From a virus (taxonomy: Duplodnaviria > Heunggongvirae > Uroviricota > Caudoviricetes): a DNA stretch of 64,000 nucleotides. A program made the translations under genes and the position numbers. The notes beneath the pieces are model-generated. The model was not told where the DNA came from. It ran no database searches and was given only the letters and a program-made list of their open reading frames with translations. This document shows positions 7,403 to 61,830 of the stretch, piece by piece. Positions within the stretch are counted from its first letter, which is position 1; each line of letters opens with the position of its first letter. Location of the stretch: the IMG/VR virus record IMGVR_UViG_2718218304_000001, positions 32,001-96,000 of that record; one strand, given 5' to 3'.

Positions 7403-7404
7403 TA

Positions 7405-7428
7405 AAAGGCGGTGCATTGCACCGCCTA
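7405..7428. terminator. bidirectional terminator hairpin between convergent apbC and the UmuD-like gene
   Basis: Inverted repeat ggcggtgcattgcaccgcc flanked by A/T runs. Confidence 0.5.
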
Positions 7429-7438
7429 ATCAGTTCTC

Positions 7439-7828
7439 CTACATCACGGGACAATCATCAAACTCGCCACTTCTTGCGTCGTTGATAATGTGAGTGATCA
7501 CACCAAACACGGCATTGCTGCCCGTGCATCCATCGTCATCCTTTGGCAATGCTTCCTTCTTACCGGTTCTTAAATCCTCCAGATGCTGACGTGGGTACTT
7601 CCGGTATCTTTTTACGCGATATTCCCCATCCAGAGCGCATACAAGCAGAGAACCATCAACCGGGGTAAGTGAGGAATCGACCACCAGCAATGCACCCTGT
7701 AATATTCCCTCACGATGATGACTATCAGCTGCCCTCATGAAGTAGGTCGCTGAAGGATGTCTAATTATCTGCTGATCAAGAGAAATACGGCTCTCAGCAT
7801 AATCCGCCGCAGGAGAAGGGAAGCCCAT
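7439..7828 (-). CDS. UmuD'-like S24 peptidase domain protein (lacks UmuD N-terminal arm; no umuC partner)
   Basis: MGFPSPAADYAE...HPSATYF...LLVVDS...DGEYRVKR aligns with UmuD from its Cys24-Gly25 cleavage site onward; Ser (ADSH) and Lys (RVKR) of the catalytic dyad are retained. Confidence 0.6.
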   Translation of the reverse strand: MGFPSPAADYAESRISLDQQIIRHPSATYFMRAADSHHREGILQGALLVVDSSLTPVDGSLLVCALDGEYRVKRYRKYPRQHLEDLRTGKKEALPKDDDGCTGSNAVFGVITHIINDARSGEFDDCPVM

Positions 7829-7926
7829 AGCGTTTTCACCTCAGAGTACTGTTTATCCATACAGTATACATTAAAGATGCTTGAAGTGTGCAATAGCGCG
7901 ATGCTTTGCGCTCGTCTGGTGGCGCG

Positions 7927-8178
7927 TTATTTTTTGGCTATATCTTCTTTCTGATATACCGGATCGTTTCCTTTTGGCAGCAGGAGGCTTAACTGCCGGT
8001 AGTGCCGTAGCCGTTCCATGAAATAGGTGCGCAGGTTCTCAGGTTGCTCACGGGCTACCTGTTCCGCTATGACGGGTATGTTCAATCGCTCTTTGTAGGC
8101 AACCCCCCTGGCAGCCAGGTCAACGTTAACTTTATTCCTTTCTTCCTGGCTTTTGGCTGCTATGTTCCAGTTGCTCAT
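7927..8178 (-). CDS. hypothetical protein
   Basis: ORF track only; no recognisable motifs. Confidence 0.2.
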
Positions 8179-8530
8179 GTTTAAGGCTCACATTTCCAGA
8201 TGGTATTCTGAACACCCGTACCAGGCGCAAGATGAGGGTTAGCGTTCGCGCTATGCAGATATACAGCTTTAGACTTTCCGTATTGCTGACAGGCTTTATC
8301 TGCGTTTTTTGGCAGGCTATCCAAGCCAATACCAGCCATCGAACTGGATGCTAACCTTTTCACCGTCATTGTATTGCACCATCGCACACCCAGACATAGC
8401 TAAAATCGCACCGACAATACCGCTTTTCCAAAAAGCTCTAATTAGGTCATTCGTTACCTAATGTCCGAACTGCTAAAGCATCCAAGTTGCTGTAGAATCA
8501 CATCCAATTACTTAAACCTGAAATAAGTGG

Positions 8531-10093
8531 ATGAAAATGACAAGTATTCAACAACGTGCAGAGCTTCATCGCCAGATCTGGCAAATTGCTAACGATGTCA
8601 GGGGTTCAGTCGATGGATGGGATTTTAAGCAGTACGTTTTGGGCGCGCTTTTTTACCGTTTTATCAGCGAAAATTTTTCCAGTTATATTGAAGCCGGTGA
8701 TGACAGTATCTGTTATGCGAAACTGGATGACAGCGTAATTACTGATGACATTAAAGACGATGCCATCAAAACTAAAGGCTACTTCATCTACCCCAGTCAG
8801 CTTTTCTGCAACGTAGCTGCGAAAGCAAATACTAATGACAGACTGAATGCAGATTTAAACAGCATCTTCGTTGCTATCGAAAGTTCTGCTTACGGTTATC
8901 CTTCAGAAGCTGACATCAAAGGTTTGTTTGCTGATTTCGATACCACCAGTAACCGCCTGGGTAACACCGTTAAAGATAAAAATGCCCGCTTGGCTGCGGT
9001 TCTGAAAGGGGTTGAAGGGCTAAAACTTGGTGACTTCCATGAACATCAGATTGACCTGTTCGGTGACGCCTATGAGTTCCTGATTTCTAACTATGCGGCG
9101 AATGCCGGTAAGTCCGGCGGCGAGTTCTTTACACCGCAGCACGTCTCTAAGCTGATTGCACAACTGGCTATGCACGGGCAGACCCACGTTAACAAAATCT
9201 ACGACCCGGCAGCAGGCTCCGGTTCGCTGTTGTTGCAGGCGAAAAAACAGTTTGATGACCATATCATCGAAGAAGGTTTTTTTGGTCAGGAAATCAACCA
9301 TACGACCTATAACCTGGCGCGTATGAACATGTTTTTGCACAACATCAACTACGACAAGTTTGATATCAAGCTGGGTAATACACTGACTGAGCCGCACTTC
9401 AGAGATGAAAAACCGTTTGATGCCATCGTTTCTAACCCGCCGTATTCGGTGAAATGGATTGGCAGCGATGACCCGACGCTGATTAACGATGAACGTTTTG
9501 CCCCGGCTGGCGTTCTGGCCCCCAAATCCAAAGCTGACTTTGCGTTTGTATTACATGCGCTGAACTATCTTTCGGCCAAAGGTCGCGCTGCGATTGTCTG
9601 CTTCCCAGGCATTTTTTACCGTGGCGGCGCGGAGCAGAAAATCCGTCAGTATCTGGTCGACAATAACTATGTCGAAACCGTGATTTCACTGGCACCGAAT
9701 CTGTTCTTTGGCACCACTATTGCCGTCAATATTCTGGTGCTGTCTAAACATAAAACGGATACCAAAGTTCAGTTTATTGATGCCAGCGAACTGTTCAAAA
9801 AAGAGACTAACAACAACATTCTGACCGATGCTCATATCGAACAGATTATGCAGGTATTTGCCAGCAAGGAAGATGTTGCTCATCTGGCGAAATCTGTTGC
9901 GTTTGAGACTGTTGTCGCGAATGACTATAACCTGTCGGTGAGCAGCTATGTGGAAGCGAAAGATACTCGCGAAATTATCGATATCGCTGAGCTGAATGCT
10001 GAGCTGAAAACCACGGTCAGCAAAATCGACCAGTTGCGTAAAGATATTGATGCGATTGTTGCTGAGATTGAAGGTAGCGAGGTACAGGCATGA
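8531..10093 (+). CDS. hsdM: type I restriction-modification methyltransferase subunit HsdM (type IC, EcoR124I-like)
   Basis: NPPY motif ([10 protein letters not shown]) and AdoMet-binding DPAAGSGS; sequence matches my recollection of EcoR124I HsdM. Confidence 0.9.
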
Positions 10094-11337
10094 GCGAGCT
10101 GAGTTATCTGGAAAAACTGCTGGATGGGGCTGAGGTTGAGTGGGTAGCATTAAATAAATTAGCAACTTTTTTAAAAGGGAAGTCTTTACCTAAAGAAAAA
10201 ATAACTCCAGATGGCAATAGATATTGTATTCATTACGGTGAGCTTTTCACTCATTATGGTCCCATAATTGACAAAGTATGCTCAAAAACAAACCAAGCAA
10301 TCAATGAGTCAATTCTATCTGAAAAAAATGATGTTCTAATGCCAACGTCAGACGTTACACCAAGAGGTTTGGCTACAGCTAGTTGCATTCAAGAAAGTGG
10401 CGTTATTTTAGGCGGCGATATTTTGATTATTAGATGCTCTGGTGTTGATGGTAGATATCTAAGTAATTTCATAATAAATAACAAAAAAAAGATATTGCAA
10501 ATGGTTAAAGGTTCTACTGTTTATCATTTGTATGCTAAAGATATAGGTAAATTACTTATCCCCATCCCTTGCCCCAACAACCCGGAAAAGTCGCTGGCTA
10601 TCCAGTCTGAAATCGTCAGGATTCTGGATAAATTTACTGCACTTACCGCTGAGCTTACCGCTGAGCTTAGCATGCGTAAAAAACAATACAACTACTATCG
10701 CGACCAGTTGTTGAGTTTTAAAGAGGGTGAGGTTGAGTGGAAAGCTTTGGGGGAAATTGGTGAAGTTCGTATGTGTAAACGAATCCTAAAATCACAAACA
10801 TCTTCTGAGGGAGAGATTCCATTTTATAAAATTGGGACATTTGGTAAGGAACCCGATTCCTATATATCTAGAAAACTATTTAATGAATTTAAAGAAAAAT
10901 ATAGTTATCCTAAAGTTGGCGAAGTATTGATTTCTGCCAGTGGGACCATCGGCAGGACTGTTATATTTGATGGTAGGGAATCATATTTCCAGGATAGCAA
11001 TATTGTCTGGATTGAAAATAATGAAAAAATAGTTTTAAATAAATATTTATTCTATTTCTATAAAATAGCAAAATGGGGAATATCTGAAGGTGGAACTATT
11101 AAAAGACTTTATAATGATAACTTAAGAAAACTTATGATACCAGTACCATTTCCTGATTCTCCTGAAAGATCGCTAGTTGAACAACAAAAAATAGTGAAAT
11201 TACTGGATAAATTTGATGCTTTGACCAATTCCATCACCGAAGGTCTTCCGCGTGAAATCGAGTTGCGCCAGAAACAATACGAGTACTATCGTGATTTACT
11301 GTTCAGTTTTCCCAAACCTGAAACTATCAGTAACTAA
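10090..11337 (+). CDS. hsdS: type I R-M specificity subunit HsdS (type IC)
   Basis: ATGA start/stop overlap with hsdM; two AT-rich target-recognition domains around a conserved central region with a TAELTAEL repeat. Confidence 0.85.
10642..10668 (+). repeat. 12-bp tandem repeat x2 (CTTACCGCTGAG) in the hsdS central region, encoding TAEL-TAEL
   Basis: Read directly; this repeat number is known in the EcoR124I/II family to set the spacer length of the recognition site. Confidence 0.8.
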
Positions 11338-11458
11338 TTGACCATTGCTACCGACCGGATCACCTTAACATCCGGTCTATATAGAGACTATTTTTTACAC
11401 GCCGGAAGTCGCCCTTAAAGCCCTTCCGGCCCTTGCCAGACGGCACAAAGGATGCGCT

Positions 11459-14400
11459 ATGACTCATCAGACACACACCATTGCTGAATCCAATAACTTT
11501 ATCGTTCTTGATAAGTACATCAAAGCCGAGCAAACAGGCGACAGCTACCAGAGCGAATCGGACCTGGAACGTGAACTGATTCAGGATCTGCGGAATCAGG
11601 GCTATGAATTTATTTCCGTAAAATCTCAGTCGGCGATGCTGGCCAACGTTCGGGAACAGCTTCAGAACCTCAATGGTGTGGTGTTTAATGACAGCGAATG
11701 GCGGCGTTTCACGGAGCAGTATCTGGATAACCCGAGCGATGGCATCCTGGATAAGACCCGTAAAATCCATATCGACTATATTTGCGACTTTATTTTTGAT
11801 GACGAGCGTCTTGAGAACATCTATTTGATAGATAAAAAGAATCTCATGCGCAACAAGGTGCAGATTATCCAGCAGTTTGAACAGACGGGTTCTCATGCTA
11901 ACCGTTATGACGTCACGATCCTGGTTAATGGCTTACCGCTGGTACAAATCGAACTGAAAAAGCGCGGCGTGGCGATTCGTGAGGCCTTTAACCAGATACA
12001 TCGTTACAGCAAAGAGAGTTTTAACAGCGAAAATTCTCTGTTTAAGTATCTGCAACTGTTTGTCATTTCCAACGGCACCGATACCCGTTACTTTGCCAAC
12101 ACGACAAAGCGCGATAAAAACAGTTTTGACTTCACCATGAATTGGGCGAAATCAGACAACACGCTGATTAAAGACCTCAAAGACTTTACCGCCACCTTTT
12201 TCCAGAAACATACCCTGCTTAATGTCTTAGTGAACTACAGCGTATTCGATGTTAGCCAAACGCTACTGGTGATGCGACCGTACCAGATTGCCGCCACTGA
12301 GCGCATTCTGTGGAAAATTAAGAGTTCCTTTACAGCGAAGAACTGGTCAAAACCGGAAAGCGGTGGGTATATCTGGCACACTACCGGTTCAGGTAAAACC
12401 CTCACCAGCTTTAAAGCCGCGCGTCTGGCAACAGAGCTGGACTTTATTGATAAAGTCTTCTTCGTGGTCGACAGGAAAGACCTCGATTACCAGACCATGA
12501 ATGAATATAAGCGTTTTTCGCCAGACAGCGTCAACGGCTCGGAAAATACCGCAGGTCTTAAACGCAATCTGGATAAGGACGATAACAAAATTATCGTCAC
12601 CACTATTCAGAAACTTAATAACCTGATGAAAGCAGAAAGCGACCTGCCTGTATACAATCAGCAAGTGGTGTTTATATTTGATGAATGTCACCGCAGCCAG
12701 TTTGGAGAAGCGCAGAAAAACCTGAAGAAGAAATTCAAACGCTATTATCAGTTTGGTTTTACCGGCACACCTATTTTCCCGGAAAACGCCTTAGGCTCAG
12801 AAACGACCGCCAGCGTATTTGGTCGTGAATTGCATTCGTATGTAATTACCGATGCGATTCGTGATGAAAAAGTGCTCAAATTCAAGGTGGACTACAACGA
12901 TGTGCGGCCACAGTTTAAATCTTTAGAGACAGAAACCGACGAGAAAAAACTGAGTGCGGCTGAAAATCAGCAGGCATTTCTTCATCCCATGCGTATACAG
13001 GAAATTACGCAATATATTCTGAATAACTTCCGCCAGAAGACCCACCGTACTTTCCCAGGTTCCAAAGGCTTTAATGCCATGCTGGCAGTGAGTAGCGTGG
13101 ATGCCGCGAAAGCCTATTACGCGACGTTTAAACGGTTACAAGAGGAAGCAGCTAATAAATCGGCTACCTATAAACCGCTGCGTGTTGCAACAATCTTCTC
13201 CTTTGCCGCCAATGAAGAACAAAATGCCATTGGTGAAATTTCCGATGAAACTTTTGATACCAGCGCAATGGACAGCAGTGCTAAAGAGTTTCTTGACGCT
13301 GCAATTCGTGAGTATAACAGCTATTTTAAAACTAACTTCAGCACCGACAGTAACGGTTTTCAGAACTACTATCGTGATTTAGCCCAACGGGTTAAAAATC
13401 AGGATATCGATCTGTTAATTGTCGTTGGGATGTTTTTAACCGGCTTCGACGCTCCAACATTGAACACGCTATTCGTCGATAAAAACTTGCGTTTTCACGG
13501 CCTGATGCAGGCATTCTCCCGTACCAACCGCATTTATGACGCTACTAAAACCTTCGGTAACATCGTCACTTTTCGGGATCTGGAACGCTCAACCATTGAT
13601 GCCATAACGCTGTTTGGTGATAAAAATACTAAAAATGTGGTGTTAGAAAAGAGTTATGCTGAGTATATGGAAGGCTTTACAGATGCTGCCACTGGTGAAG
13701 CTAAACGCGGCTTTATGGCAGTAGTTTCAGAACTGGAACAACGGTTCCCTGACCCTGCCAGTATTGAAAGTGAAAAAGAGAAGAAAGACTTCGTAAAACT
13801 GTTTGGTGAATACCTGCGTGCCGAGAACATCCTGCAAAACTATGATGAATTTGCCACGCTGAAAGCCCTGCAACAAATCGATCTTAGCGATCCTGTTGCG
13901 GTAGAAAAATTCAAAGCAGAACATTATGTGGATGATGAAAAGTTCGCTGAATTGCAAACAATTCGTCTCCCTGCTGAACGCAAGATTCAGGATTATCGTT
14001 CTGCCTATAACGATATTCGCGACTGGCAGCGCCGTGAGAAAGAAGCTGAGAAAAAAGAGAAATCAACCACTGACTGGGATGACGTAGTTTTTGAGGTCGA
14101 TTTGCTGAAGTCTCAGGAAATAAACCTGGATTATATCCTTGGACTGATTTTCGAACACAACAGACAAAATAAAGGCAAGGGCGAAATGATCGAAGAGGTC
14201 AAACGCTTAATTCGTTCAAGCCTGGGGAACCGGGCGAAAGAGGGCCTGGTGGTCGATTTTATTCAGCAAACGAACCTGGATGATTTACCAGACAAAGCCA
14301 GTATCATTGAGGCATTCTTTACGTTTGCTCAACGCGAACAGCAACGTGAAGCAGAAGCATTGATAAAAGAAGAAAATCTCAATGAAGAGGCGGCGAAACG

Positions 14401-14575
14401 CTATATTCGCACGTCTTTAAAACGCGAATACGCCACCGAAAATGGCACAGAATTAAACGAGACATTACCAAAACTTAGTCCGTTAAACCCGCAATATAAA
14501 ACGAAAAAACAGACCGTTTTCCAGAAAATCGTCACGTTTATTGAAAAGTTCAAAGGAGTAGGTGGGCAGATATAG
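11459..14575 (+). CDS. hsdR: type I R-M restriction subunit HsdR (helicase-nuclease)
   Basis: 1038 aa; Walker A TGSGKT and DECH box; only a 120-nt gap after hsdS. Confidence 0.9.
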
Positions 14576-14633: not shown

Positions 14634-15110
14634 TCAAACCATCGTAGGGATGTTTGTATCCACTTTGAACTCAGGTACACCAACGAACTCTTTAACCTTC
14701 ATCTGGTAGCCGGTTCTGTCAGTTTTGATGACTTCCTGTTTGCCCTCTATAAACTGCTCACGCCACTCGTCGCGACGGGAAGCTGGCATGATCAGCAAAA
14801 CGTTAGTCATATCCGTGACCTTCCTCCAGTACTCGGCCCAAATATTCTGTTTCACCCATTCCAGATCGACTTTATCCAGCCAAGCTCGATTCAAACGTGA
14901 GCGTTCTTCATCTGGTCGATGGTTCAGTTGCAGCAGGCGATTAATCATGTTGTGGCGTTCGTCGCCATAAACGAAGTCGTGAACCTGATACATGAAGGCG
15001 ATCTCTTTCTCGCACTCGGCTACGATTTCGTGGATGACGTTCATTTCCTGACGATAATCGATAGCAGTGTTTGAGTTGGTATCGTCGATGATGGAAAGAG
15101 CTGTATTCAT
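14634..15110 (-). CDS. hypothetical protein, convergent with hsdR
   Basis: ORF track; normal GC; no recognised domain. Confidence 0.35.
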   Translation of the reverse strand: MNTALSIIDDTNSNTAIDYRQEMNVIHEIVAECEKEIAFMYQVHDFVYGDERHNMINRLLQLNHRPDEERSRLNRAWLDKVDLEWVKQNIWAEYWRKVTDMTNVLLIMPASRRDEWREQFIEGKQEVIKTDRTGYQMKVKEFVGVPEFKVDTNIPTMV

Positions 15111-15213: not shown

Positions 15214-15828
15214 CTAATCATACTTTGAGGTATTTATAACCAGGATTTTGTTTGTATAAATCTTCTTAATATCCCATGTGACATTACCGGAATACCATTG
15301 ACCGTTATATACTTGGTTTCCAGTTGCACCGGTCATAGTTACATAGACAGGTCTGTCGTAATCGGTTCGTCTATAGTTATAAACCCCAACCATAGCAGGC
15401 ATTACTGCGCACGGATACCCCATATCTATTGTAAATTGTGGGTCAGTAATAGTGATAAGTTTTGCATCAAGGGGCATCATCTCACCGTGATACACCATTG
15501 CGCCTGCGCTGTTATACATGGCAATGCCATAGCCAGAATGTGGTAACACCATATCAGAAAAAGCATAAACTGTTATTGTTCCGGGGCTACCATTTACCTG
15601 ATGCAATCTGAGAGCATTGTATCCGTTACTATGTTCATGAATAAACATCATGTTCGCCTTATTGCTGCTTTTTATGAAGAAAAAGCATGATTTGTTTGAT
15701 GGGATTGATGTTTGAAAAACAGAACCTTTAGATGTAGACATTGTCCCTTTATTAATCAGATTTTGCGGAGTAAATTCAGGACTCATCCACAAACTTCCAT
15801 CTGATTGAGTAATTGACATCCCGAACAT
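15214..15828 (-). CDS. hypothetical Asn/Tyr/Gly/Thr-rich protein (AT-rich gene; start refined)
   Basis: The track start at 15885 is a non-ATG (TTG) codon preceded by an in-frame stop; the ATG at 15828 lies 2 nt after the stop of the upstream ORF. Confidence 0.35.
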   Translation of the reverse strand: MFGMSITQSDGSLWMSPEFTPQNLINKGTMSTSKGSVFQTSIPSNKSCFFFIKSSNKANMMFIHEHSNGYNALRLHQVNGSPGTITVYAFSDMVLPHSGYGIAMYNSAGAMVYHGEMMPLDAKLITITDPQFTIDMGYPCAVMPAMVGVYNYRRTDYDRPVYVTMTGATGNQVYNGQWYSGNVTWDIKKIYTNKILVINTSKYD

Positions 15829-15830
15829 AA

Positions 15831-16112
15831 TTATCCCCAGTATGTGTATATGTAAGAACCAAGCCCCGTATATAAATTTGACCAACTAACCGTATTTCCA
15901 TTAATAGTAACATTTGGAACAGGTAAATTGATGTAGTTGTCGTTGTTAAGAGGCATTAATGACCACACGGCATGTAGTGATTTACCCGGTGGCGGATTAG
16001 AGTACGTCTTAGAGCCTGATGACGCCGTAAATCGATCAAGAAAAAAAATAGGTGTAAGGAAGCCAGTAACGTTAATTCCTTTATTGTTGTAAATCCCTGT
16101 ACCGTATGCCAT
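15831..16112 (-). CDS. hypothetical Asn/Tyr-rich protein (AT-rich gene)
   Basis: ORF track; its stop is 2 nt from the next start, consistent with translational coupling. Confidence 0.35.
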   Translation of the reverse strand: MAYGTGIYNNKGINVTGFLTPIFFLDRFTASSGSKTYSNPPPGKSLHAVWSLMPLNNDNYINLPVPNVTINGNTVSWSNLYTGLGSYIYTYWG

Positions 16113-16166
16113 TTTTCACCCTTGTTTTTATCAACACAATATGGCCGATCATGCGGCCATATCAGA

Positions 16167-16736: not shown

Positions 16737-17033
16737 GTGTTTTTCCTAATGCTTAAACAAGTTGTTTTCTTATTGGCTTTATTGTGATGTGGCATAAAAG
16801 GGGAGCAAGCTAAACGTAAAGGTGCAAACTCTCTATTTCGGTCAACGAAACACAAGGGCCATTTGGCCCTTGTCATTAACACGTTGCTTTACGGACTAGC
16901 GGATAAGCGAAGTAGATCGCCAGACCAATGAGGACGCCATCAGAAATGACAGACATCATCTTTCCCGTAAAATCCACCAACACCGCTATCACCAGAAGAG
17001 CAATGACGGTCACAAGCCGGAATCTCTCAAGCA

Positions 17034-20581: not shown

Positions 20582-20640
20582 CTTCTTTCTCGATAGGTAA
20601 GTAAATACCTATTTTTGCATTTGATTTTATGTCTGGCAAT

Positions 20641-22290: not shown

Positions 22291-22299
22291 CAGAACTCC

Positions 22300-51274: not shown

Positions 51275-51369
51275 GCGTTTTTCCTTTGTTCTCTAATGAG
51301 CGTTCAACTTCTTATATAAATATACCATTAACTATCGTAAGTAGTTACTTATCATCAAGGCTGTTTTAT

Positions 51370-53478
51370 TCACTTCAAAATGATACGAGATAGTTCAGTA
51401 ACTACAGATGAACCAAGACTATCAACGCTCGTTACCAGGGCATGATTTGAGTAAAATCTCTCCGGTGCGTCAGTCATGATGCCAATTGCCATCAAATCAA
51501 TGTCAGTCTGCGTTTCAATTTGCTTCGCAACCGAACGCAAATGAGCGTCAAAACCTCTCCCAACAGCCCACGGCTCGCCATCGCTCAGAACAAGCATGAT
51601 CTTCCTGTCCTCCATGCGACCGGAAAATAACGATGCAAGGCTGGCTATGCTTTCACCATCCACGTTATTAAGAAGTGGGAATGTGTAGCCTACGCACCCC
51701 ATACGTGAGCGAACTTCGCGAGAATTTACCTTTTCATTCCAATTTTTGATGATAGGTAGCATTAAAGATTCAAAGCGAGAGAACTCATACTTGACAGCCT
51801 TAAGTTCTCCTGCCGCCATATGACTACCAAATGTAGTGAAGCCGGTGATAATGTTGGGAACATTTATTCGATCAAGGGCATCGGCGATGGTATATGCACT
51901 TGCAAGAGCCAATTGTATCGTTATACCCCTCATTGAACCTGATAAATCAATCACTTGTTGAACACAGGCGTTAACGGCTTTAGATTCTTCTTTTTTACGA
52001 AACACGCGATCATCATTCATTGCTAATCTGTAGATACTAGAACCATGAATGCGCCCCCGACGCTGGCCCGGTATAAACTGAACTCTGTTTCTGCTTGCTA
52101 TTGCTCGCTCCAGGTCTTTTGCCAGCGTCGACGAAACACCTGACGAAAGATGCTTTTCAATATATTTGTCGAAGAGCTGGTTGCCTTCAGGAACGATGCG
52201 ATAGCGGCTGATTGGACATCCTCCTAAATCAATATCGGAGAATGTTTTAATAAGCCGTTTGATATGGGCTTCTGCCTGATCAATCGAGCCGATGAAGTCG
52301 TATGAGCGATTGTATGGCCTGTATTCGCTTTTCGAGCTTTCTGTTAACTCGCTTTTAATCGTTTCGGATAGAGCATCTTCTGTCATGCCTCCGACTTCAT
52401 CTTCTATGCTATCCAGCTCCTCTAAAGCCTCTTCCAGACTCATTTTTGACGGAGTTGGGATATCTGAAGAGCCGTCTTCTGTCGTTTTTCTTTTTTCGTG
52501 GTCAGCGGTAAATGATTCTGACACCGCGTTATCAGAAGCATCAGAATCTGATACCTCTTTATCATTTTCTGTATCATCGAATATTGTTTCTGATGATTCA
52601 GAATTATCTGAATCATCATCGTCGTTATTATCATGTTTGTGCTTACTGTGTGATTCTGATTTGATAGATTTGTGATTATCTAACGCTGAGGGTGTCTCAT
52701 GATCTTCGTTGTCTTCATTGTTTTCTCCAGAGGCATCCGTCTGGTCAGCGTCTGAAGGATCGGAAGTTTTTCCCGGAGCTGACTCCTTACCTTTGCTTTC
52801 ACTTTCACTGTCTTTGAGGATCTTAGCTATGATCGCAGCCACCTTTACACAATCCTCGGTGCAAGACATGTTACGCACGGCCACATCGATACCATGTTCT
52901 TTTAATAATGAAATTGGTTTCTCAATGACAGGCCAATATTCATCCATGAAATCTACGAACGGTGCTTGGCCATCCCAGGCTCTTACAACCGGACAGAGAA
53001 AGAAGTTTAGAAAAAGCGCGCGCTGATCTTTGCCACAATAAGCAATAGCCTCTGAAGCCTTTGGTTTAAAGACTTTTTCGATTATAAGGCGCTGAGTTGC
53101 CATCAGATTACGTCTTGTTCCGTTAAAGACCTGACCCATTTTTCGCTCGATGAACACGTCTTCTAAGGCATTCCATAGCGACCAGGAAGGAACGCGTCCT
53201 TTTTCTCTCATTTTGTTGGACACACGAATATCGGTAAACAAAATGTGAGCAACCTCATGATCGAGAAATCCGCGCACAGCATTCATCAATGCCGGTGTTG
53301 CGTTATCCGGGATTGATGGGATGTTTACGAGAATTGGCTCTCCATCATCGTTATAGCGTACATAAGCGTCGTCCCCTCGTTCTGCAACAGGGATGTTTTT
53401 ACCTGAAAGGAGAGCGACTACTCGTTTTACACTGTCACGGAAGTCCTGAACCTCTTTGATGGAACGTTTTTTAGACAT
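51370..53478 (-). CDS. CobT-like protein with C-terminal von Willebrand A domain and acidic low-complexity linker
   Basis: MIDAS-like DLSGS motif near the C-terminus; long Asp/Ser/Glu-rich middle segment. Confidence 0.55.
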   Translation of the reverse strand: MSKKRSIKEVQDFRDSVKRVVALLSGKNIPVAERGDDAYVRYNDDGEPILVNIPSIPDNATPALMNAVRGFLDHEVAHILFTDIRVSNKMREKGRVPSWSLWNALEDVFIERKMGQVFNGTRRNLMATQRLIIEKVFKPKASEAIAYCGKDQRALFLNFFLCPVVRAWDGQAPFVDFMDEYWPVIEKPISLLKEHGIDVAVRNMSCTEDCVKVAAIIAKILKDSESESKGKESAPGKTSDPSDADQTDASGENNEDNEDHETPSALDNHKSIKSESHSKHKHDNNDDDDSDNSESSETIFDDTENDKEVSDSDASDNAVSESFTADHEKRKTTEDGSSDIPTPSKMSLEEALEELDSIEDEVGGMTEDALSETIKSELTESSKSEYRPYNRSYDFIGSIDQAEAHIKRLIKTFSDIDLGGCPISRYRIVPEGNQLFDKYIEKHLSSGVSSTLAKDLERAIASRNRVQFIPGQRRGRIHGSSIYRLAMNDDRVFRKKEESKAVNACVQQVIDLSGSMRGITIQLALASAYTIADALDRINVPNIITGFTTFGSHMAAGELKAVKYEFSRFESLMLPIIKNWNEKVNSREVRSRMGCVGYTFPLLNNVDGESIASLASLFSGRMEDRKIMLVLSDGEPWAVGRGFDAHLRSVAKQIETQTDIDLMAIGIMTDAPERFYSNHALVTSVDSLGSSVVTELSRIILK

Positions 53479-54040: not shown

Positions 54041-54427
54041 ATGTCTGATAACAAGATTGAATTTATAGAAAGTCGCTACGCTGCTTTTATCGCAGGGTTG
54101 ATTGAATCCTCACCTATGAGTCAGGCCCAAATAGCCAGACTTATTGGTTATAAAAATGCCAACAACCTTTCTTTAATTAAAAGTGGCAAAATTCCTTTGC
54201 CTATCGATAAGGTTCGTCCGTTGGCGCTGGCGCTGGGTATTGAGCCAAGTCGTCTTATGATGATGGTGCTGGAAGAACGCCAACCTGAACTCGCAGCATT
54301 TTTATACAAAGAAGGCACCGCTCCTCTTAACGAGGACGAAAAACAGGTTCTTGCTGCATATAACGAGCGATTCGGTAAAGAGAAAGGCGCATCACAAAAG
54401 GTTGTTGAGGCCATAAAGTCTCTATGA
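54041..54427 (+). CDS. helix-turn-helix (XRE-like) DNA-binding regulator
   Basis: MSQAQIARLIGYKNANNLSLIKSGK is HTH-like; convergent with the recombinase gene. Confidence 0.5.
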   Translation: MSDNKIEFIESRYAAFIAGLIESSPMSQAQIARLIGYKNANNLSLIKSGKIPLPIDKVRPLALALGIEPSRLMMMVLEERQPELAAFLYKEGTAPLNEDEKQVLAAYNERFGKEKGASQKVVEAIKSL

Positions 54428-55525
54428 AAAATTTACACGAATAAGCTCTGTTGATAGACGATCTCCCTTGAATTTGTGGTCAATTTCGTCTAAATCCGGT
54501 TGCTCTACGATTGATGCGATGTACGTCGAGAAACTTTCTAAGGCGTCTCGCATCTCGTCCATATAATCGTGCCGGTCGTAGACTCGATCTATCCCCTCAA
54601 GACTGTGGTTCATGATTTTGCGTGATACCTCCTGGCTTATGCCTAATGCTGGGAAGTAACTACGCGCAGTACGGCGCAAGTCTCGGGGTGTAAATGGCTC
54701 AAGCTCCATCAGTTCTGGTCGTTCCAGAATACGACGTAATGCCTGGGCTATTGCCACTTTAGACATAGGAAGGTCTTTCCCGATTTTTTTATTCGAAGGC
54801 ACGAGCCACTGGCTGTCTTTACCATATTCGAACAACTCTTCAATACAAGTGCGCATTAATGAGCTTAAAGGCAGAGAATGCTCACGGGCAGATTTGTTCC
54901 TCTTGCCTTGATTCCAAACCCCACGCTTAAGATTGAACTCACTTTTTTTAGCCCGCAGTACTTCGTCAGGTCGTCTTGCGGATACAAGACATAGCCTGGC
55001 AGCCCATTTTGTACCAGCACACACATTGAAGTAGTCCCATATATTCCAGAACACCCATACCTCTGCGTCGGTCAGCTTCCGCTCGCGAGGTGTGGGCTTT
55101 GCGCCACCGGCAACTTTGTTAAGTGACATATCGTTTAACGGTGACACGTCTATCATCCCCTGGAAGGCGCACCAGCTAAGGAACTGCTTCATCAGAGAGA
55201 AAACGCGGCGGCCCATAACAATTTTGCCATCCAGTATTAGTGGGTTGACCAGTTGGTTCACCATGAACCTATTAATGTCACTTACTTTTACATCGGCAAT
55301 GTGCGGCAAAACATGTATCAAAATACAATGAACAGCGATCTCTGGCCGACGTCTGGTTATCAGCAGAGATAAGCGAGTGAATAACATGAATGCGTCCGAG
55401 AATCTCATGTCATTGCTAACCTGCGAGATCATAACGGCCTGCATTTGAGATGCTCTTTCGAGATACTCTATCGCCTCTTTTGAGGTGTTCTCCGCAGCGC
55501 GTGCTCTGTCAAAGCTATTTTTCAT
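54422..55525 (-). CDS. tyrosine site-specific recombinase (integrase or resolvase)
   Basis: C-terminal catalytic region with RDLRRTA...MNHS...RVYDRHDY (R..H..R..Y). Confidence 0.8.
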   Translation of the reverse strand: MKNSFDRARAAENTSKEAIEYLERASQMQAVMISQVSNDMRFSDAFMLFTRLSLLITRRRPEIAVHCILIHVLPHIADVKVSDINRFMVNQLVNPLILDGKIVMGRRVFSLMKQFLSWCAFQGMIDVSPLNDMSLNKVAGGAKPTPRERKLTDAEVWVFWNIWDYFNVCAGTKWAARLCLVSARRPDEVLRAKKSEFNLKRGVWNQGKRNKSAREHSLPLSSLMRTCIEELFEYGKDSQWLVPSNKKIGKDLPMSKVAIAQALRRILERPELMELEPFTPRDLRRTARSYFPALGISQEVSRKIMNHSLEGIDRVYDRHDYMDEMRDALESFSTYIASIVEQPDLDEIDHKFKGDRLSTELIRVNFS

Positions 55526-55623
55526 ATGACAATCACCGAGTTACGCCGATGTACTGTATAAGTAAACAGTATATTAGGCATAGATTCTTATAGGATCAAG
55601 AGTAAAAGTAACTCATTTTTACT

Positions 55624-55656
55624 AATGATTCCATACATAGTAGGTATGGAATCATT
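55624..55656. promoter_or_regulatory. lox-like recombination site candidate: perfect 13-bp inverted repeat around a 7-bp spacer
   Basis: AATGATTCCATAC-ATAGTAG-GTATGGAATCATT, ~100 bp upstream of the recombinase start. Confidence 0.5.
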
Positions 55657-55735
55657 TTGACGTTGTTTTTTGAATTTTAAGGGAAATGGGAGTGAGTTTG
55701 GTGGGAATAAAAACGGCTCCTGTGAGCCGTTAAAA

Positions 55736-55981
55736 TCAGAGGGTGCTGACGTATGCAGCCAGTTCTGTGTATCCGCCAATCGGCTGGCCATCGATCAGCA
55801 CCTGGGGGATAGTCTCTACCGGTTTACCAACAATTTCACTTAGTTTTTCCTTGTCGATACCGGCAGTGGTGATGTCGATGTACTCATAATCACCGTAGCC
55901 ATGTCCCTTTAGTTGCTTCGCCAGCTCGACCGCACGTTTGCAGTATGAGCAGTTATCTCGTCCGTAGATAGTGATCGTCAT
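55736..55981 (-). CDS. glutaredoxin-like protein
   Basis: CSYC active-site motif near the N-terminus of an 81-aa protein. Confidence 0.65.
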   Translation of the reverse strand: MTITIYGRDNCSYCKRAVELAKQLKGHGYGDYEYIDITTAGIDKEKLSEIVGKPVETIPQVLIDGQPIGGYTELAAYVSTL

Positions 55982-56328
55982 TGCTTTGCCTCATGCCACT
56001 TTTGCTTCAGGAGATAGCCTTCCAGGGGCCAGATTTGATCGATAGCATCTTTTCGAGCGTACTCGCGACCAACATCAAAGTTGAAGATTTCTGGTCTTAC
56101 GCACGCAGATTTTCCCGTTACGGTATATCCATTTTTGAGAACCATAACGCAGAACGTTAAGAGTTTTAACGACTCATGACCTTTGTCGATATCTGTTTTT
56201 GAATTGTAAACAGAGATGAAGTTATCCCCGTGGCTGGCATCATATGCAGTGAAATAATGTTCACTTTGAATGAGTTGTTCAATGTGTTCAGGGGTGACTT
56301 TTAGTGGTGTGTTATCTTTGCTGGTCAT
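55978..56328 (-). CDS. hypothetical protein
   Basis: ORF track; stop/start overlap with the glutaredoxin-like gene. Confidence 0.3.
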   Translation of the reverse strand: MTSKDNTPLKVTPEHIEQLIQSEHYFTAYDASHGDNFISVYNSKTDIDKGHESLKLLTFCVMVLKNGYTVTGKSACVRPEIFNFDVGREYARKDAIDQIWPLEGYLLKQKWHEAKQ

Positions 56329-56549
56329 TATTTCTTCCTACAAAGTTCGTAGACTTGACTCTTTCAGTTGCAAAAAAGGGGCCGAAGCCCCTTTGAATTT
56401 TGCGCTGAAAAAAAGTGTTGCTAGGATGTTAGCAAGCTATGGTTAAGAACGTCTGCCGTAATTGTCTATCACAGCGTTGAGCGGTCTGGTTTATGTTAGC
56501 GGAGTCTTAATCTGGGTGATTAAAAGGCCAAACCGCTCAACGCTGTGTC

Positions 56550-56636
56550 TGGCGGAGAGTAATGGAATCGAACCATCATCGCTTGCGCAATGGGACGGTT
56601 TTCAAGACCGCTTGAGCACCATGCTCCCTACTCTCC
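56550..56636 (-). tRNA. tRNA-Ser (anticodon UGA), long variable arm
   Basis: Hand-folded: acceptor GGAGAGT/ACTCTCC, anticodon loop CUUGAAA, T-loop TTCGATT, encoded CCA; D-arm is atypical. Confidence 0.5.
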
Positions 56637-56956
56637 AGCTATTGTGATGGTCGGTGCTGAACTCCGACACAGGGTTGTAGCAAGCCCCGCAAAGCGCGCA
56701 CTACTGTAGTTGCGGCACATCAGCCTGTGCATTCATCACAACGGTAAGATCACTACCTTTCGACCAGTCATTGTGCACATGAACGACGATTAACCGTAAT
56801 GATCTTATCGTTGTGTTGTGAAGCCAGATGCTTATCTTCTGGTTGCTTCAAAGAGCTGCACTTCCTCACAACGGTAAGAGCACTGGTCTGACTCTATCGA
56901 TTTACGGGCTTGTGGGTCAGTATCGCCGATTCGCCCAATGCTCTTACCTGTTGTGT

Positions 56957-57032
56957 TGGTGCCGGTTAACGGGATCGAACCGCTGACATCCTGCTTACAA
57001 GGCAGACGCTCTACCAACTGAGCTAAACCGGC
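56957..57032 (-). tRNA. tRNA-Thr (anticodon UGU)
   Basis: Hand-folded: acceptor GCCGGTT/AACCGGC, D-arm GCTCAGTTGGTAGAGC, anticodon loop CUUGUAA, T-loop TTCGATC, CCA. Confidence 0.7.
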
Positions 57033-57036
57033 AATT

Positions 57037-57123
57037 TGGTGGGGAGTGATGGAGTCGAACCACCCGAGTCGCAATGACAGTAGATTTACAGTCTACCCCG
57101 CTGCCCCTACGGACTAACTCCCC
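57037..57123 (-). tRNA. tRNA-Tyr (anticodon GUA), long variable arm
   Basis: Hand-folded: acceptor GGGGAGT/ACTCCCC, anticodon loop CUGUAAA, T-loop TTCGACT, CCA. Confidence 0.6.
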
Positions 57124-57128
57124 TAAAT

Positions 57129-57203
57129 TGGCGATGGTGGGTGGATTCGAACCACCGACCAGTTGGTTAACAGCCAACTGCTCTACCGCTGAGCTACACC
57201 ATC
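57129..57203 (-). tRNA. tRNA-Asn (anticodon GUU)
   Basis: Hand-folded: acceptor GATGGTG/CACCATC, D-arm GCTCAGCGGTAGAGC, anticodon loop CUGUUAA, T-loop TTCGAAT, CCA. Confidence 0.7.
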
Positions 57204-57981: not shown

Positions 57982-58272
57982 TTATTCGGTTGTGACTTTT
58001 TTGATCAAGGCCACTCTACGACTAGGTGTTCTTGTGATGGTGGCAGTGAATCGTTTCGCTTGGATAGTAATGGTTTCGTTCTCCTTAAGTTGCCCGTAGC
58101 GAGTTTCCACCAGGGTGCCAAGACGCCACAGACCATCATCGATACGTTTATGACTGGCAAATTTAATCAGCAGCAGTTTTACGACTAACTGACCTACGTA
58201 AAAGGCGAATGCGACTCCGGCCGCTAAGAAATAGGTGGCCAACCACCAGTCCCAAGAAGTTAAATTGCTCAT
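57982..58272 (-). CDS. membrane-anchored hypothetical protein
   Basis: N-terminal hydrophobic helix (WWLATYFLAAGVAFAFYVGQLVV). Confidence 0.35.
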   Translation of the reverse strand: MSNLTSWDWWLATYFLAAGVAFAFYVGQLVVKLLLIKFASHKRIDDGLWRLGTLVETRYGQLKENETITIQAKRFTATITRTPSRRVALIKKVTTE

Positions 58273-58417
58273 TTTCTAACCTTTGTTTCATGAACTACCC
58301 GATACACACGCTTTCCGATGCACAGTGTTTTGGTTTTAAGTTCCTGCTTAATTAAATCACGACAGATGCCGAAGCCGATAAGGAAGCCACCCATAAAAGC
58401 TAATGAGATGTATGGAA

Positions 58418-58633
58418 TCATTTTAACGCTCCTGATTCTACTAATTGCTGTAGCAATACTTTCCCTTTATCAGTTAACTGGTAGTTGGCCGAACACCACG
58501 TTTCAGAAACGTTTGCAACCAACCCTAACCGCTCTAACTTAGCTCGCGTTTTAGGCTTCCAGTACTCAGGGAACTCCGGCCACTTACTTATTTCATGAAG
58601 CGTTTCTTTCTCCCGTTTACTTAATACGATCAT
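58418..58633 (-). CDS. hypothetical small protein
   Basis: ORF track; stop/start overlap with the ligase gene. Confidence 0.3.
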   Translation of the reverse strand: MIVLSKREKETLHEISKWPEFPEYWKPKTRAKLERLGLVANVSETWCSANYQLTDKGKVLLQQLVESGALK

Positions 58634-59952
58634 TCTTTATCTCCGATTCGATCTTCGGTATCGCGTAAGCAACGCGGCCATTTCAGTCGTGGGTGGCGTA
58701 AGCTGCCATCCGGCGTTTTCTCGTGACAATGAACCTCGACAATACGACCACGGTACTTCTCTTTGTTGTTCCAGATCTCGTCCAGATATTTATGCTTAAT
58801 GCCGCTCGCACGAACAATCACACCGTTTTCAAGGCGAATAACAATTTTTCCAAGCGTGTTGGCAAAACCAGAGTCCGGGTCGCCAGGCTCAAAGTCGATA
58901 ATTTCACCATCTTCTGAATCTTCGTCTTTTAACTTCCACCAGCTGCGGGTACGTTTAAACTCGTAAACAGAGTTCGGATCTTTGCCCATCTCCCCTTCTT
59001 CGTTATCGTCCAGGCGTTTCATGAAGCGTTCGATGAAGTCTTCGTGGCTATGGATGATGTAGAACGGATGAAGGTGGATATCTTGCGCATAATCTTCCAC
59101 GCAAGTGTTGCGGAACAACGCCACCAGCATAGCCAGGCGCTCTTTCAGCTTCATACCGGTCTTCAGGTACTCTTTGCTTTTTGCTTGAGCACGCCACTCC
59201 GGTAAGAAGAAATCGAAAATGTGGTAAACGGCACCAATGGCTTTCACGTTCTTCTTACGAAGCGCCGACACTGACTGGTTGAATGTACCTGCAGTGCCCT
59301 CTCCATCGAAGAAGATGTGATTGAAGCCGGAGAGTCTGCCCCGCTCCAGCATGGCTGGTTTAAGGTGATCGAGTGACGTAATCGGATTGCCGGTGCGCGT
59401 CAGGAAATTGACCTCACCCTCGTCCACGATGACTTCGCAGATAACCCGGAGACCATCGAGTTTGAGACTGCCGATCATTGGCCACTTGGCCTTTGGATTT
59501 GGTTTAAATGGGTATTTGTCGCCTTTCTCCTTGTACGGAGACGCCAGCTGTACCTCAAACTTCGGAATTGGGTTTTTGAACACCTTGTTGCACAGGCTGA
59601 TGCCGACACCGGCTTTCGGATCTTTCAGCAGGAAGCGACGAAACACGTCCTGCCCGTCAGCGCACATCGAGGCAACGAGTGATTCGACAGCAGCAATAGC
59701 GATGTTCCCGGTCAGTTCGCGCGCTGCCAGCTTCTCCAGCAGATCTACTACCTTCTGGTCGCTGGGTACGGAAGTATCGAGTGGCTCGGCCACTTTGTAC
59801 TTCTTCACACCGAATCGAATGAATGGATTGAGCATTAGCGAGACCATGCTCTGTTCAAATTCATCCAGATTGGCCAGCGCCTCTTTCTTGGCGTTGGTTC
59901 CCATCGTTTTAATAGCATCCAGCTTGTGCTTTAGGGCGATCAGTTTTTCCAT
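58630..59952 (-). CDS. ATP-dependent DNA ligase
   Basis: Adenylation motif I KLDGLR (SLKLDGLRV) in a 440-aa protein. Confidence 0.8.
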   Translation of the reverse strand: MEKLIALKHKLDAIKTMGTNAKKEALANLDEFEQSMVSLMLNPFIRFGVKKYKVAEPLDTSVPSDQKVVDLLEKLAARELTGNIAIAAVESLVASMCADGQDVFRRFLLKDPKAGVGISLCNKVFKNPIPKFEVQLASPYKEKGDKYPFKPNPKAKWPMIGSLKLDGLRVICEVIVDEGEVNFLTRTGNPITSLDHLKPAMLERGRLSGFNHIFFDGEGTAGTFNQSVSALRKKNVKAIGAVYHIFDFFLPEWRAQAKSKEYLKTGMKLKERLAMLVALFRNTCVEDYAQDIHLHPFYIIHSHEDFIERFMKRLDDNEEGEMGKDPNSVYEFKRTRSWWKLKDEDSEDGEIIDFEPGDPDSGFANTLGKIVIRLENGVIVRASGIKHKYLDEIWNNKEKYRGRIVEVHCHEKTPDGSLRHPRLKWPRCLRDTEDRIGDKE

Positions 59953-59958
59953 TAGTGT

Positions 59959-60462
59959 TTAACCTCCATCGGTCGCTCGGGAGTTTTCATGTGTTTTCTT
60001 TGGTTGCTTCTTCAATGAGTGCCGCGTACACGTCAGTGATCGACGCCAGTGAATCGGTGGGCTTGGTTTCGGATTTAGCAGGTTCTGTTTTCTTCGTGCG
60101 ATGAATAAGACTGTCAATTGTCGCGGAGTTTCGCTTCCGGGGGGCGTTCTGGCATGGTCGTTTTGCTCTTCCACTTCTTTGATAAGTGAAGACATATCGA
60201 TGAAGTAGAGCTGTTCGCCTTTGCGGATCTCTTCGACCATCATTTTCAGTGCCTGACATTTACCAGCAGCAATAGCCGCAGCACAGGACTGGAACGATGT
60301 AGCCGGGAGACGTTTTTCTTTATAGGCGAGGATCGTGTGTTGGCAGACTGTATAGCTGCAATGAGCCTCATGGCCGTTGAGCTTCACTTCCGGGCAGCGC
60401 AGCGAATAACCGTTGTTTCCGGAGATAGACGGGATTTTCGACAAATCTGTTCTTGTGGACAT
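59959..60462 (-). pseudogene. Cys/His-rich hypothetical gene with a frame break at a C6 homopolymer
   Basis: The N-terminal ~105 aa look protein-like, then the frame turns into a Pro/Arg-rich tail; a +1 shift at the G6 run 60139..60144 (C6 on the coding strand) joins a well-formed C-terminus ending at 59987. Confidence 0.35.
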
Positions 60463-60542
60463 GCTTCTAACCGTAATCTTGTACTTACTTATTAATCGCA
60501 GTTTAAAGAAGCCCCACGAGGGGCTAAATGTTTTATCGAGGC

Positions 60543-61355
60543 TTACCAGGTCGCCCAGCCAGTCATTTTGTCCTGAGCAGCTTCGAACCGGTATGGGTCC
60601 AGTAAATCGTTGGCATGGTGGACGGCGTAGGATTTGGCTTCTTGTTTAATCATGGGTAATTCGTTGGCCAGACGAGCCACTTGCCCTGCAAAACTGGCGA
60701 GTACTCCGTCACATGCCTGACCCGCGTCGACAATGATGCGCACCAGGTCTAAGTCGCTGCGGCACATATCGCAGATAATGCCGTATTCCACCTCACGAAT
60801 GCGCTCAACGGCTTTTTTGATATCGCCACTGACCACCAATTCCAGCAAACCAGGTGGAGTTGTCAGATCTGTTACGCGCTCGGTAACTTCAGACTGTTCG
60901 ACAATACTCAGGAACGCCGCGATGGACGGGTCATCCGCCACACCAGCTCTGACTTTGAGCGTGCGAAGAGTTGCGTCGACAATATCCTCAAACCGTTCAC
61001 CTTCATCGCACACAGTCTGATTGGTGTAGACAGTCTGATTAGTGTAGACAATGCGACCGTCGTACCATGCACCGGTACTCACTTCGACCGTTGCGTCTTT
61101 CATCTCGCGAGAGAACGCCACAAGTGCCGCGCGTTTCTGCTTAACACCTGGCAACTCCGGGGACTCTCCAAAACGAACCCAGACCTGCATGTATTTCGAG
61201 CCTTCCGAAAGAGGTGCGGCGCTCACGGACGTGGCGATATGCTCCAGCGCAGTTTGGATCGCCTCGTCGATAATCTTCTGGCGCTCTTCTGTATCAATTT
61301 CTACGCCGGATTTGTCGATGATGTCGCAGACTAACTTCTGAAATTCTTCTTTCAT
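60543..61355 (-). CDS. hypothetical protein containing an 18-bp tandem duplication (VYTNQT x2)
   Basis: ORF track; tandem repeat read at 61013..61048. Confidence 0.4.
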   Translation of the reverse strand: MKEEFQKLVCDIIDKSGVEIDTEERQKIIDEAIQTALEHIATSVSAAPLSEGSKYMQVWVRFGESPELPGVKQKRAALVAFSREMKDATVEVSTGAWYDGRIVYTNQTVYTNQTVCDEGERFEDIVDATLRTLKVRAGVADDPSIAAFLSIVEQSEVTERVTDLTTPPGLLELVVSGDIKKAVERIREVEYGIICDMCRSDLDLVRIIVDAGQACDGVLASFAGQVARLANELPMIKQEAKSYAVHHANDLLDPYRFEAAQDKMTGWATW

Positions 61356-61449
61356 AGCAACTCCTGACTAACAGATGAAAGTATTCTTTCAGAAAAATAA
61401 GTAAGTATCTACTTATTATATCGGGCGCAATAGTCTGCTATACGAAGAA

Positions 61450-61830
61450 GCCAGGCGTAAAAACCACTCGGATGCACATCCAGCACCCGACAAAGCAGTC
61501 GGACAGGCCAGCAATGGGTGTTGTCACGGATAAAGGCGTACCTCAGTCGGACAGCTTTGCGAAGTACGCCGCGCTTTTTTTAATATGTCCCGTTCGTCGG
61601 TAACCCGCTTCAGCTCTTTCTGGAGACGGCGGATCTCGGCCTGAGCATCTGACTGTTCTTTATTAGTGGAAGAATCCGGACCGTACTTCTTTATCCAGGA
61701 GTAAAGGCTGTGGGTGGTGATATCGAGACGTGTTGCAACGCTGGCAACAGAATAACCGCGATCAACAACCTGTTTGACTGCTTCAATTTTTAAACTCTTC
61801 GGGATAACGCTTACCGCTCATGGGCACCTC
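61450..61830 (-). mobile_element. IS3-family insertion sequence remnant (orfA frameshifted, orfB cut after ~40 codons)
   Basis: Minus strand encodes MSGKRYPEEFK then a frame break at an A5 run, continuing IEAVKQVVDRGYSVASVATRL...RRLQKELKRVTDERDILKK; an A7G slippery-type heptamer; orfB-like RYAFIRDNTHCWPVRLLCRVLDVHPSGFYAW ends near 61445. Confidence 0.55.

Follow-up and report, generated by a model that had tools for sequence, protein, structure and literature searches.

A 64-kb stretch of viral DNA very probably belongs to a circular phage-plasmid in the Escherichia coli branch of the SSU5 supergroup

We analysed 64,000 nucleotides of the IMG/VR virus record IMGVR_UViG_2718218304_000001 (this whole stretch is called the window), in which a preliminary description, made from the sequence, had singled out positions 7403–61450 as a 54-kb accessory element of replication genes lying between chromosomal genes. 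The window very probably represents 64 kb of a circular phage-plasmid of about 110 kb from the E. coli branch of the SSU5 supergroup (pECOH89/p09EL50, pLF82, which is phage Cyrano, CMS-2020a and PhiR41_1), and the flagged 54 kb are the replication, recombination and nucleotide-metabolism arm of such a phage-plasmid. The element is a member of an already known kind, the SSU5 supergroup, and is essentially an already known entity. Firstly, positions 7403–32000 are 99.6% identical, with 100% coverage, to the E. coli plasmid pMB5646_2 (NZ_CP103659; 109,579 bp, circular, non-mobilizable); 33 plasmids cover at least 80% of this span, and the rest of the window is 98–99% identical to the same plasmid family. 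Secondly, the entire 64 kb, including the metG-apbC and yehD flanks, are collinear with circular, non-mobilizable E. coli plasmids of about 110 kb (pMB5646_2, pYPE3-114k) at 95–99.6% identity. The alignment with pYPE3-114k (NZ_CP041451) takes in 60,813 of the 64,000 bases in a single order and orientation, from position 79071 of that record through its start to 27146, and its gaps are confined to small variable spots (window positions 3006–3957, 10144–11177 and 45525–46323). The first 8,500 positions, which hold metG-apbC, are covered to at least 80% by 176 records; among the matches listed these are plasmids, mostly of 95–120 kb. Thirdly, gene repertoire and order place the window in the SSU5 supergroup, with 94–99.6% nucleotide identity to pMB5646_2, pYPE3-114k, Cyrano, CMS-2020a and PhiR41_1.

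The comparison with SSU5 itself (NC_018843) bears out the resemblance to the replication arm of SSU5 and pHCM2 that the preliminary description had noted. Homologues of 44 of the 62 window open reading frames (ORFs) were found in SSU5, at 29–97% amino-acid identity (most 47–97%), and 43 of these 44 are strictly collinear, in inverted orientation, from 93.6 kb to 38.2 kb of SSU5; the exception is a membrane moron (15214–15885). Identity reaches 88% for DnaE, 87% for NrdA, 89% for NrdB, 97% for the ligase, 95–96% for the RecA exteins and 90% for DHFR, and falls to 48% for Rep. The arm follows the order known from SSU5 and pHCM2 (ligase, tRNA, CobT/CobS-like, DnaE, SSB, flap endonuclease, RecA, Rep, SbcCD, RuvC, NrdAB, MazG, ThyA, DHFR, exonuclease, Dam, RNase H). 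SSU5 differs in being only about 77% identical in nucleotides, in its Rep, and in lacking metG-apbC, humD-hot, hsdMSR, the tyrosine recombinase, the glutaredoxin, the RecA intein, three of the four tRNAs and the fimbrial operon.

Neither capsid, tail, terminase nor conjugation genes were detected among the window ORFs scanned with Pfam and PHROGs profiles, as had been noted for the 54 kb, and they are probably missing because the window spans little over half of the replicon. In near-identical complete plasmids the structural and packaging genes are contiguous with the window's span, about 12 kb before it and about 17 kb after it, and none lies inside. As annotated, the remaining arc of pYPE3-114k, of about 52 kb, carries the rest of the yeh-type operon followed by phd/doc, a primase, a DnaB-like helicase and tail genes (tail fibre, tail proteins, tape measure), together with a DUF1778/GNAT toxin–antitoxin pair, the major capsid, portal and large terminase genes, two ParB-like proteins and a DEAD-box helicase. 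The annotation of pMB5646_2 shows the same structural and packaging arc outside the span equivalent to the window. Genes for ParA-like and ParB proteins lie outside the window and are seen only in the relatives, which are typed as rep_cluster_488 (PLSDB). The absence of structural and conjugation genes from the 54 kb could also be read as the mark of a self-standing replication-module island, that is, a new accessory element of replication genes only, with neither phage nor plasmid identity. We consider such an island vanishingly improbable: the absence would arise only because of the extent of the window, the gene order is that of SSU5 between 38 and 94 kb, and the proposed boundaries are not discontinuities of homology. 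Indeed, the match to these plasmids and to SSU5 is unbroken across positions 7403 and 61450, from window position 1 to 64000, so that these two positions do not delimit an element.

The preliminary description had alternatively proposed an integrated or a decayed phage-plasmid, which is not supported. Among 5,426 complete E. coli genomes, the window's DnaE is present in 242, at 249 places, all of them on plasmids and none chromosomal. Integration into a chromosome, or fusion into a larger cointegrate, either of which would mean that the window does not lie in a free circle of about 110 kb, nevertheless has several points in its favour: the element encodes a tyrosine recombinase; relatives occur inside plasmid records of 198–324 kb; metG(−), apbC(+) and yehD(+) match the chromosomal metG-mrp-yehE-yehDCBA arrangement in order and orientation; and a chromosomally integrated SSU5-like rep/par fragment without phage structural genes is described in S. 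Agona (bioRxiv 10.1101/2025.09.12.675607). Against this stand the DnaE survey, the position of both window ends in sequence common to free plasmids, and the flanks themselves, since metG-apbC is the plasmid allele (97–99.8% identical to plasmid copies versus 88.5% to E. coli K-12) and the yeh-type operon is only 67–74% identical in nucleotides to any chromosomal yeh/stc locus examined. No junction with a host chromosome (attL/attR, direct repeats or an interrupted host gene) was found in the window, the supposed flanks being plasmid alleles. An integrated or cointegrated state is therefore very improbable. A deleted or decayed derivative, which would retain the replication arm, would be missing the virion module wholly or in part and would persist only as a plasmid, is improbable. 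Shorter relatives do exist, namely a 94.8-kb record (NZ_CP081702.1, the best match to positions 1–8500 and to metG-apbC) and a 62-kb E. albertii record; the window contains insertion sequence (IS) elements and cargo insertions, and an SSU5-type methyltransferase gene is truncated at 14634–15110. However, most replication-arm ORFs that have an SSU5 homologue are full length when compared with it, the closest matches of full length are replicons of 107–114 kb with complete structural arcs, and the conserved backbone shows no sign of decay within the window. The two situations that had been named as speaking against an integrated element, an extrachromosomal phage-plasmid with captured genes and structural genes just beyond the window, are both seen in near-identical plasmids.

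Several points weigh against the assignment of the window to a free phage-plasmid. The window reaches neither structural genes nor any replicon end and shows no replicon closure. The free, intact circular state of this copy is what its near-identical relatives suggest, and no single database record was found to be identical to the window over all variable spots. The shorter and the far larger relatives indicate that deleted or cointegrated versions exist. Virions have been shown for the relative Cyrano (PMC9928086) and other relatives are deposited as phage genomes. Lastly, the roles proposed below for the iterons, the resolvase and the element's own replisome in a lytic cycle rest on homology. 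The small doubt that remains concerns whether this copy is intact and free.

The gene pair at the left of the flagged block consists of metG (4111–6144, minus strand) and apbC/mrp (6302–7402, plus strand), identified by Pfam and encoding a full-length MetRS and ApbC/Mrp. The pair occurs at ≥95% identity on about 190 plasmids, nearly all of them non-mobilizable and from Escherichia or Shigella, and in three deposited phage genomes (Cyrano, CMS-2020a and PhiR41_1, which match positions 1–8500 at 94–97% identity, metG-apbC included). Alignment with K-12 gives one block of 88.5% nucleotide identity that ends exactly at both gene ends; the proteins are 98.5% (MetG) and 94.5% (ApbC) identical to those of K-12, with ratios of non-synonymous to synonymous substitution rates (dN/dS) of 0.026 and 0.023. 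Among the metG loci of 80 species, the closest chromosomal ones are those of Escherichia (88%), followed by Atlantibacter, Kosakonia and Citrobacter (about 85%). Because the proteins are conserved, dN/dS is low and plasmid carriage is wide, metG-apbC is an old, functionally maintained, host-derived resident of the phage-plasmid lineage and not a chromosome junction. Two MetG matches of 99% amino-acid identity, which lie on contigs of the chromosomes of Escherichia sp. E1V33 and 'Enterobacter hormaechei B56', were considered as integrated copies or as the donor and rejected: their nucleotide identity is 87.8–88.5%, the same as for K-12, and they contain no other window sequence. The apbC homologue of Cyrano is among the genes expressed in lysogens (PMC9928086) and is annotated as 'septum site-determining protein'. 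No paper discussing a plasmid-borne MetRS/ApbC pair was found in the searchable literature.

At the other end, positions 61447–64000 (plus strand; 99% identical to pYPE3-114k) hold IS sequences and then the first part of a chaperone-usher fimbrial operon of yeh/stc type: a seemingly intact transposase ORF of the IS3 family (62136–63002, plus strand; Pfam rve and HTH_21) with an ISEhe3-like remnant nearby, and the gene of a yehD-type fimbrial major subunit (63144–63695, plus strand; Pfam). The operon has no match in the phage records of Cyrano, CMS-2020a and PhiR41_1 and adjoins IS sequences, which argues that it is plasmid cargo; the IS sequences (61447–63002) mark its insertion point. We thus rejected metG-apbC and yehD as chromosomal flanks, which they had been taken for, since both are carried by the same circular plasmids of about 110 kb and metG-apbC is also present in phage records. 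What misled the earlier reading is that the K-12 chromosome has the order yehA-B-C-D-E-mrp-metG (2187380–2196333), and metG(−), apbC(+) and the yehD-type gene(+) of the window share this relative order and orientation, though they lie 54 kb apart. This likeness is not fully explained. A single capture is doubtful because the divergence from chromosomes differs strongly between the pair (88%) and the operon (67–74%). No close yeh match was found in the metG loci of the 80 species with their 10-kb flanks, the best (74%) being that of a Citrobacter with only 84.6% identity in metG-apbC; it is unlikely that one chromosome donated both. It is conceivable, if doubtful, that the order is what remains of a former residence of the phage-plasmid at this chromosomal locus in an ancestor, or of a single capture whose parts were later separated; strong purifying selection would then have preserved the pair as genuine auxiliary genes. 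If this were true, MetRS and ApbC could, for example, aid translation or Fe-S supply, either in lytic growth or in lysogeny.

Closest to the window are pMB5646_2, pYPE3-114k, pECOH89 and the pSLy3 group, non-mobilizable rep_cluster_488 plasmids with the same backbone, order and cargo at 95–99.6% identity; they differ only at variable spots (the hsdS target-recognition domain, the csp region, the presence of the yeh operon and SPFH genes), and some members carry ISEcp1-blaCTX-M-15. PhiR41_1 (PV340561) and CMS-2020a (CP053388, CP054387), of 108–109 kb, are 97–98% identical over the backbone of 7403–32000 and share metG-apbC and the Rep/iteron replicon, but they lack hsdMSR (72% coverage of 7403–32000) and do not match the yeh-type operon. 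Cyrano (pLF82; OV696614) is 98.3% identical over 72% of the same span and carries metG-apbC; unlike the window, it has a different Rep allele and neither hsdMSR nor a yeh-type operon. As a plasmid, Cyrano amounts to about 5.5 copies per cell; it forms siphovirus-shaped virions, and ciprofloxacin induces it (PMC9928086). pECOH89 is non-conjugative and has dnaE, dnaG, parAB, rnhA, dam, dfrA and nrdAB in common with pLF82, pHCM2 and SSU5 (PMC3999498). The SSU5 supergroup has been defined (PMC7969092) and surveyed in clinical isolates (bioRxiv 10.1101/2025.09.12.675607). With phage P1 the window shares an iteron-controlled, low-copy plasmid-prophage lifestyle, humD-hot (about 87%) and a restriction-modification (R-M) cassette common to P1-like phages; the backbone, in contrast, is unrelated. 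P1 is a myovirus and is not known to have a DnaE/Nrd replication arm of its own.

The plasmid-type Rep with iterons that had been recognized in the window proved real. The replicon (35694–37567, plus strand; Pfam and repeat search) comprises two DnaA-box-like sites, an iteron cluster, rep and a second iteron set. The rep ORF (35817–37031, plus strand) encodes a Rep3_N initiator (Pfam), its true start probably lying farther downstream than 35817. At least 15 copies of the iteron GTATGCTGTCAGCGGT form two sets that bracket rep, at 35795–35920 and 37031–37567, the second with about 11 copies; the Rep3_N initiator and these iterons are the plasmid maintenance functions that the window itself contains. 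The two DnaA-box-like sites stand in tandem (35694–35710), with one mismatch each, ahead of the first cluster; as support for an origin, DnaA boxes counted across the window are not above chance (24 versus 15.7 ± 3.8). The Rep/iteron region is 98–99% identical to PhiR41_1 and CMS-2020a, and only 14% of it matches Cyrano. With conserved genes on either side, the Rep/iteron module appears to be an exchangeable cassette within the group.

The window is densely coding, with 40–51% G+C and genes mainly on the minus strand (ORF listing and composition). Gene calls were checked by Pfam and PHROGs scans of the ORFs, tRNAs by ARAGORN and RNA families by Rfam. Nearly all replication, recombination and nucleotide genes named in the preliminary description are real, but its claim that they make up almost the entire element was too strong: their summed ORF lengths amount to about 24 kb, which is 45% of the 54 kb and rises to 51% when the CobS/CobT-like pair is counted. 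Its inventory also overlooked hsdMSR, HumD/Hot, the tyrosine recombinase, csp, the TerB-like and membrane morons and the RecA intein. The nucleotide-metabolism and DNA-processing block (18394–30099, minus strand; Pfam and PHROGs), collinear with SSU5 67.8–79.9 kb at 72–90% amino-acid identity, encodes RNase H, Dam, an RNase_T-type 3'-5' exonuclease (21733–22290, minus; Pfam), a P-loop kinase-like ATPase, DHFR, a PNKP-phosphatase-like protein, ThyA (24313–25443, minus; 376 amino acids in the ORF list, 367 as annotated in relatives), a MazG/PRA-PH protein (25588–26457, minus; Pfam/PHROGs), NrdB and NrdA; Pfam confirmed NrdA, NrdB, ThyA, DHFR, the kinase-like protein, RNase H and Dam. Two stretches of ThyA match the Pfam model for thymidylate synthase, so the protein is longer than this 266-position model; SSU5 has the same form (87% identity). 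The recombination and repair block follows (30173–34716, minus strand), with a RuvC-like resolvase (30173–30742, minus; phrog_159), an unassigned ORF (30752–31495), an SbcC-like ATPase (31485–33401, minus; AAA_23/SMC_N) and an SbcD-like nuclease (33631–34716, minus; Metallophos); the three assigned proteins are 82–88% identical to those of SSU5 and the unassigned one 47%. ORF 43969–44400 was tried as the RuvC-like resolvase and rejected, having no Pfam match and a weak UvsY-like PHROG match. It belongs to a group (41818–44400, minus strand; 83–92% amino-acid identity to SSU5) with a flap 5'-3' exonuclease (41818–42813, minus; Pfam) and a gp32-type SSB (42823–43851, minus; Pfam). Beyond lie the DnaE-type Pol III alpha subunit (46352–49858, minus; Pfam) and the pair of AAA_5 (CobS-like) ATPase and CobT/VWA protein (50039–53478, minus; Pfam), this block (46352–53478) being 71–88% identical to SSU5 in amino acids. 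The ATP-dependent DNA ligase (58630–59952; Pfam) and conserved hypothetical ORFs occupy 57982–61355 (minus strand; 79–97% amino-acid identity to SSU5 38.2–41.8 kb), and an 18-bp tandem repeat of 2.2 copies lies at 61012–61050 within a conserved 270-amino-acid ORF. At the left edge, positions 1–4100 (minus strand) hold small conserved phage-plasmid ORFs to which no function is assigned; four of six have SSU5 homologues (SSU5 90.5–93.6 kb), and they are collinear with pYPE3-114k 79071–82066. The element thus appears to continue to the left edge of the window.

The ORFs for which SSU5 has no counterpart fall into three variable spots, at about 2.9–14.6 kb, at about 53.5–57.9 kb and from 61.4 kb onward. 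The first contains metG, apbC, humD, hot and hsdMSR and is bounded by the truncated methyltransferase ORF (14634–15110), which adjoins hsdMSR and retains only the first 158 of the 562 amino acids of the SSU5_095 methyltransferase. HumD, a UmuD-like S24 peptidase, and Hot, a homologue of the Pol III theta subunit, are of P1 type (7439–8178, minus strand; Pfam; about 87% nucleotide identity to humD-hot of phage P1). The complete type I R-M cassette hsdM-hsdS-hsdR, of about 6 kb (8531–14575, plus strand; Pfam), is about 95% identical to that of the P1-like phages vB_EcoM-673R5 and phi456 and is absent from Cyrano, CMS-2020a, PhiR41_1 and SSU5. These levels of identity suggest that P1-type and SSU5-type phage-plasmids may exchange humD-hot and type I R-M cassettes. 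Moron-type genes for membrane-associated, outer-membrane and TerB-like proteins follow at 15214–17459 (minus strand; PHROGs 'moron' for 15214–15885 and 17034–17459). An excisionase/regulator-like protein (44904–45503, plus strand; PHROGs) precedes a cold-shock protein gene with a full-length cspA-type 5' untranslated thermoregulator (45655–46073, plus strand; Rfam RF01766, 185.7 bits), phrog_2620 and phrog_729 covering the block 44904–46073; this csp spot between the regulator gene and dnaE varies, pMB5646_2 having cspG and pYPE3-114k lacking the segment. A further variable block (54041–57203; Pfam, PHROGs, ARAGORN and Rfam) contains a tyrosine recombinase (54422–55525; Pfam) with a small regulator alongside (from 54041), a glutaredoxin (55736–55981; Pfam/PHROGs), a Gp49-like protein and, as the preliminary description had seen, four tRNAs (Ser-TGA, Thr-TGT, Tyr-GTA and Asn-GTT, 56550–57203; ARAGORN), three of which the Rfam scan recovered, together with the cspA thermoregulator. 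The four proteins have no SSU5 counterpart, and SSU5 has only tRNA-Asn there. Altogether, the variable spots hold metG-apbC, humD-hot, hsdMSR, csp, the tRNAs and the IS-flanked yeh-type operon as accessory cargo.

A mode of life can be proposed, with roles assigned by homology. During lysogeny the element would be kept as a low-copy plasmid, its Rep3-type initiator binding the iterons on both sides of rep for plasmid-mode replication and copy control; by analogy with P1- and F-type replicons, one set is probably the origin and the other controls copy number. Partition and toxin–antitoxin genes would act from outside the window, and multimer resolution, rather than integration of the element, is the most likely role of the tyrosine recombinase. 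Upon induction, the element would supply much of its own replisome (DnaE, the DnaQ-like exonuclease, the theta-like Hot, the gp32-type SSB, the flap nuclease, RNase H and the ligase), with the primase and DnaB-like helicase encoded just past the window, as well as recombination functions (RecA-like, RuvC-like and SbcCD-like) and a set for deoxynucleotide (dNTP) supply (NrdAB, glutaredoxin, ThyA, DHFR and the kinase-like and MazG-like proteins). The replisome around DnaE, the recombination genes and those for dNTP supply would all serve lytic replication. Packaging into siphovirus particles would depend on the other arc of the replicon, and the R-M system, morons, csp, tRNAs, MetRS/ApbC and fimbriae would provide accessory functions.

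As a discovery the element carries little weight: catalogues of the SSU5-type phage-plasmids found in E. coli and Shigella exist, available tools can type them, and their carriage of blaCTX-M-15 and phage-type dfrA genes is under surveillance. Expression of the SSU5 DHFR homologue dfrA51 makes E. coli resistant to trimethoprim (PMC12217456). The window shows that a 64-kb piece holding only little over half of such a replicon can mislead, as housekeeping genes of host origin (metG, apbC) and fimbrial operons on these elements mimic chromosomal flanks. Minor points of specialist interest are the long-kept MetRS/ApbC pair, the suggested cassette exchange between P1-type and SSU5-type elements, and an intein in the P-loop of RecA. 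The RecA-like recombinase (39210–41549, minus strand; Pfam RecA, Intein_splicing and LAGLIDADG_3) contains an intein of 422 amino acids (residues 65–486) that carries a LAGLIDADG homing endonuclease, begins with Cys1 and ends with His-Asn, followed by Thr+1. Alignment to the intein-less SSU5 recombinase, to which the exteins show the high identity given above, places the insertion site inside Walker A (GPPSAGK|C...SHN|T). Public records label the whole RecA ORF 'LAGLIDADG family homing endonuclease' or 'hint domain-containing protein'.

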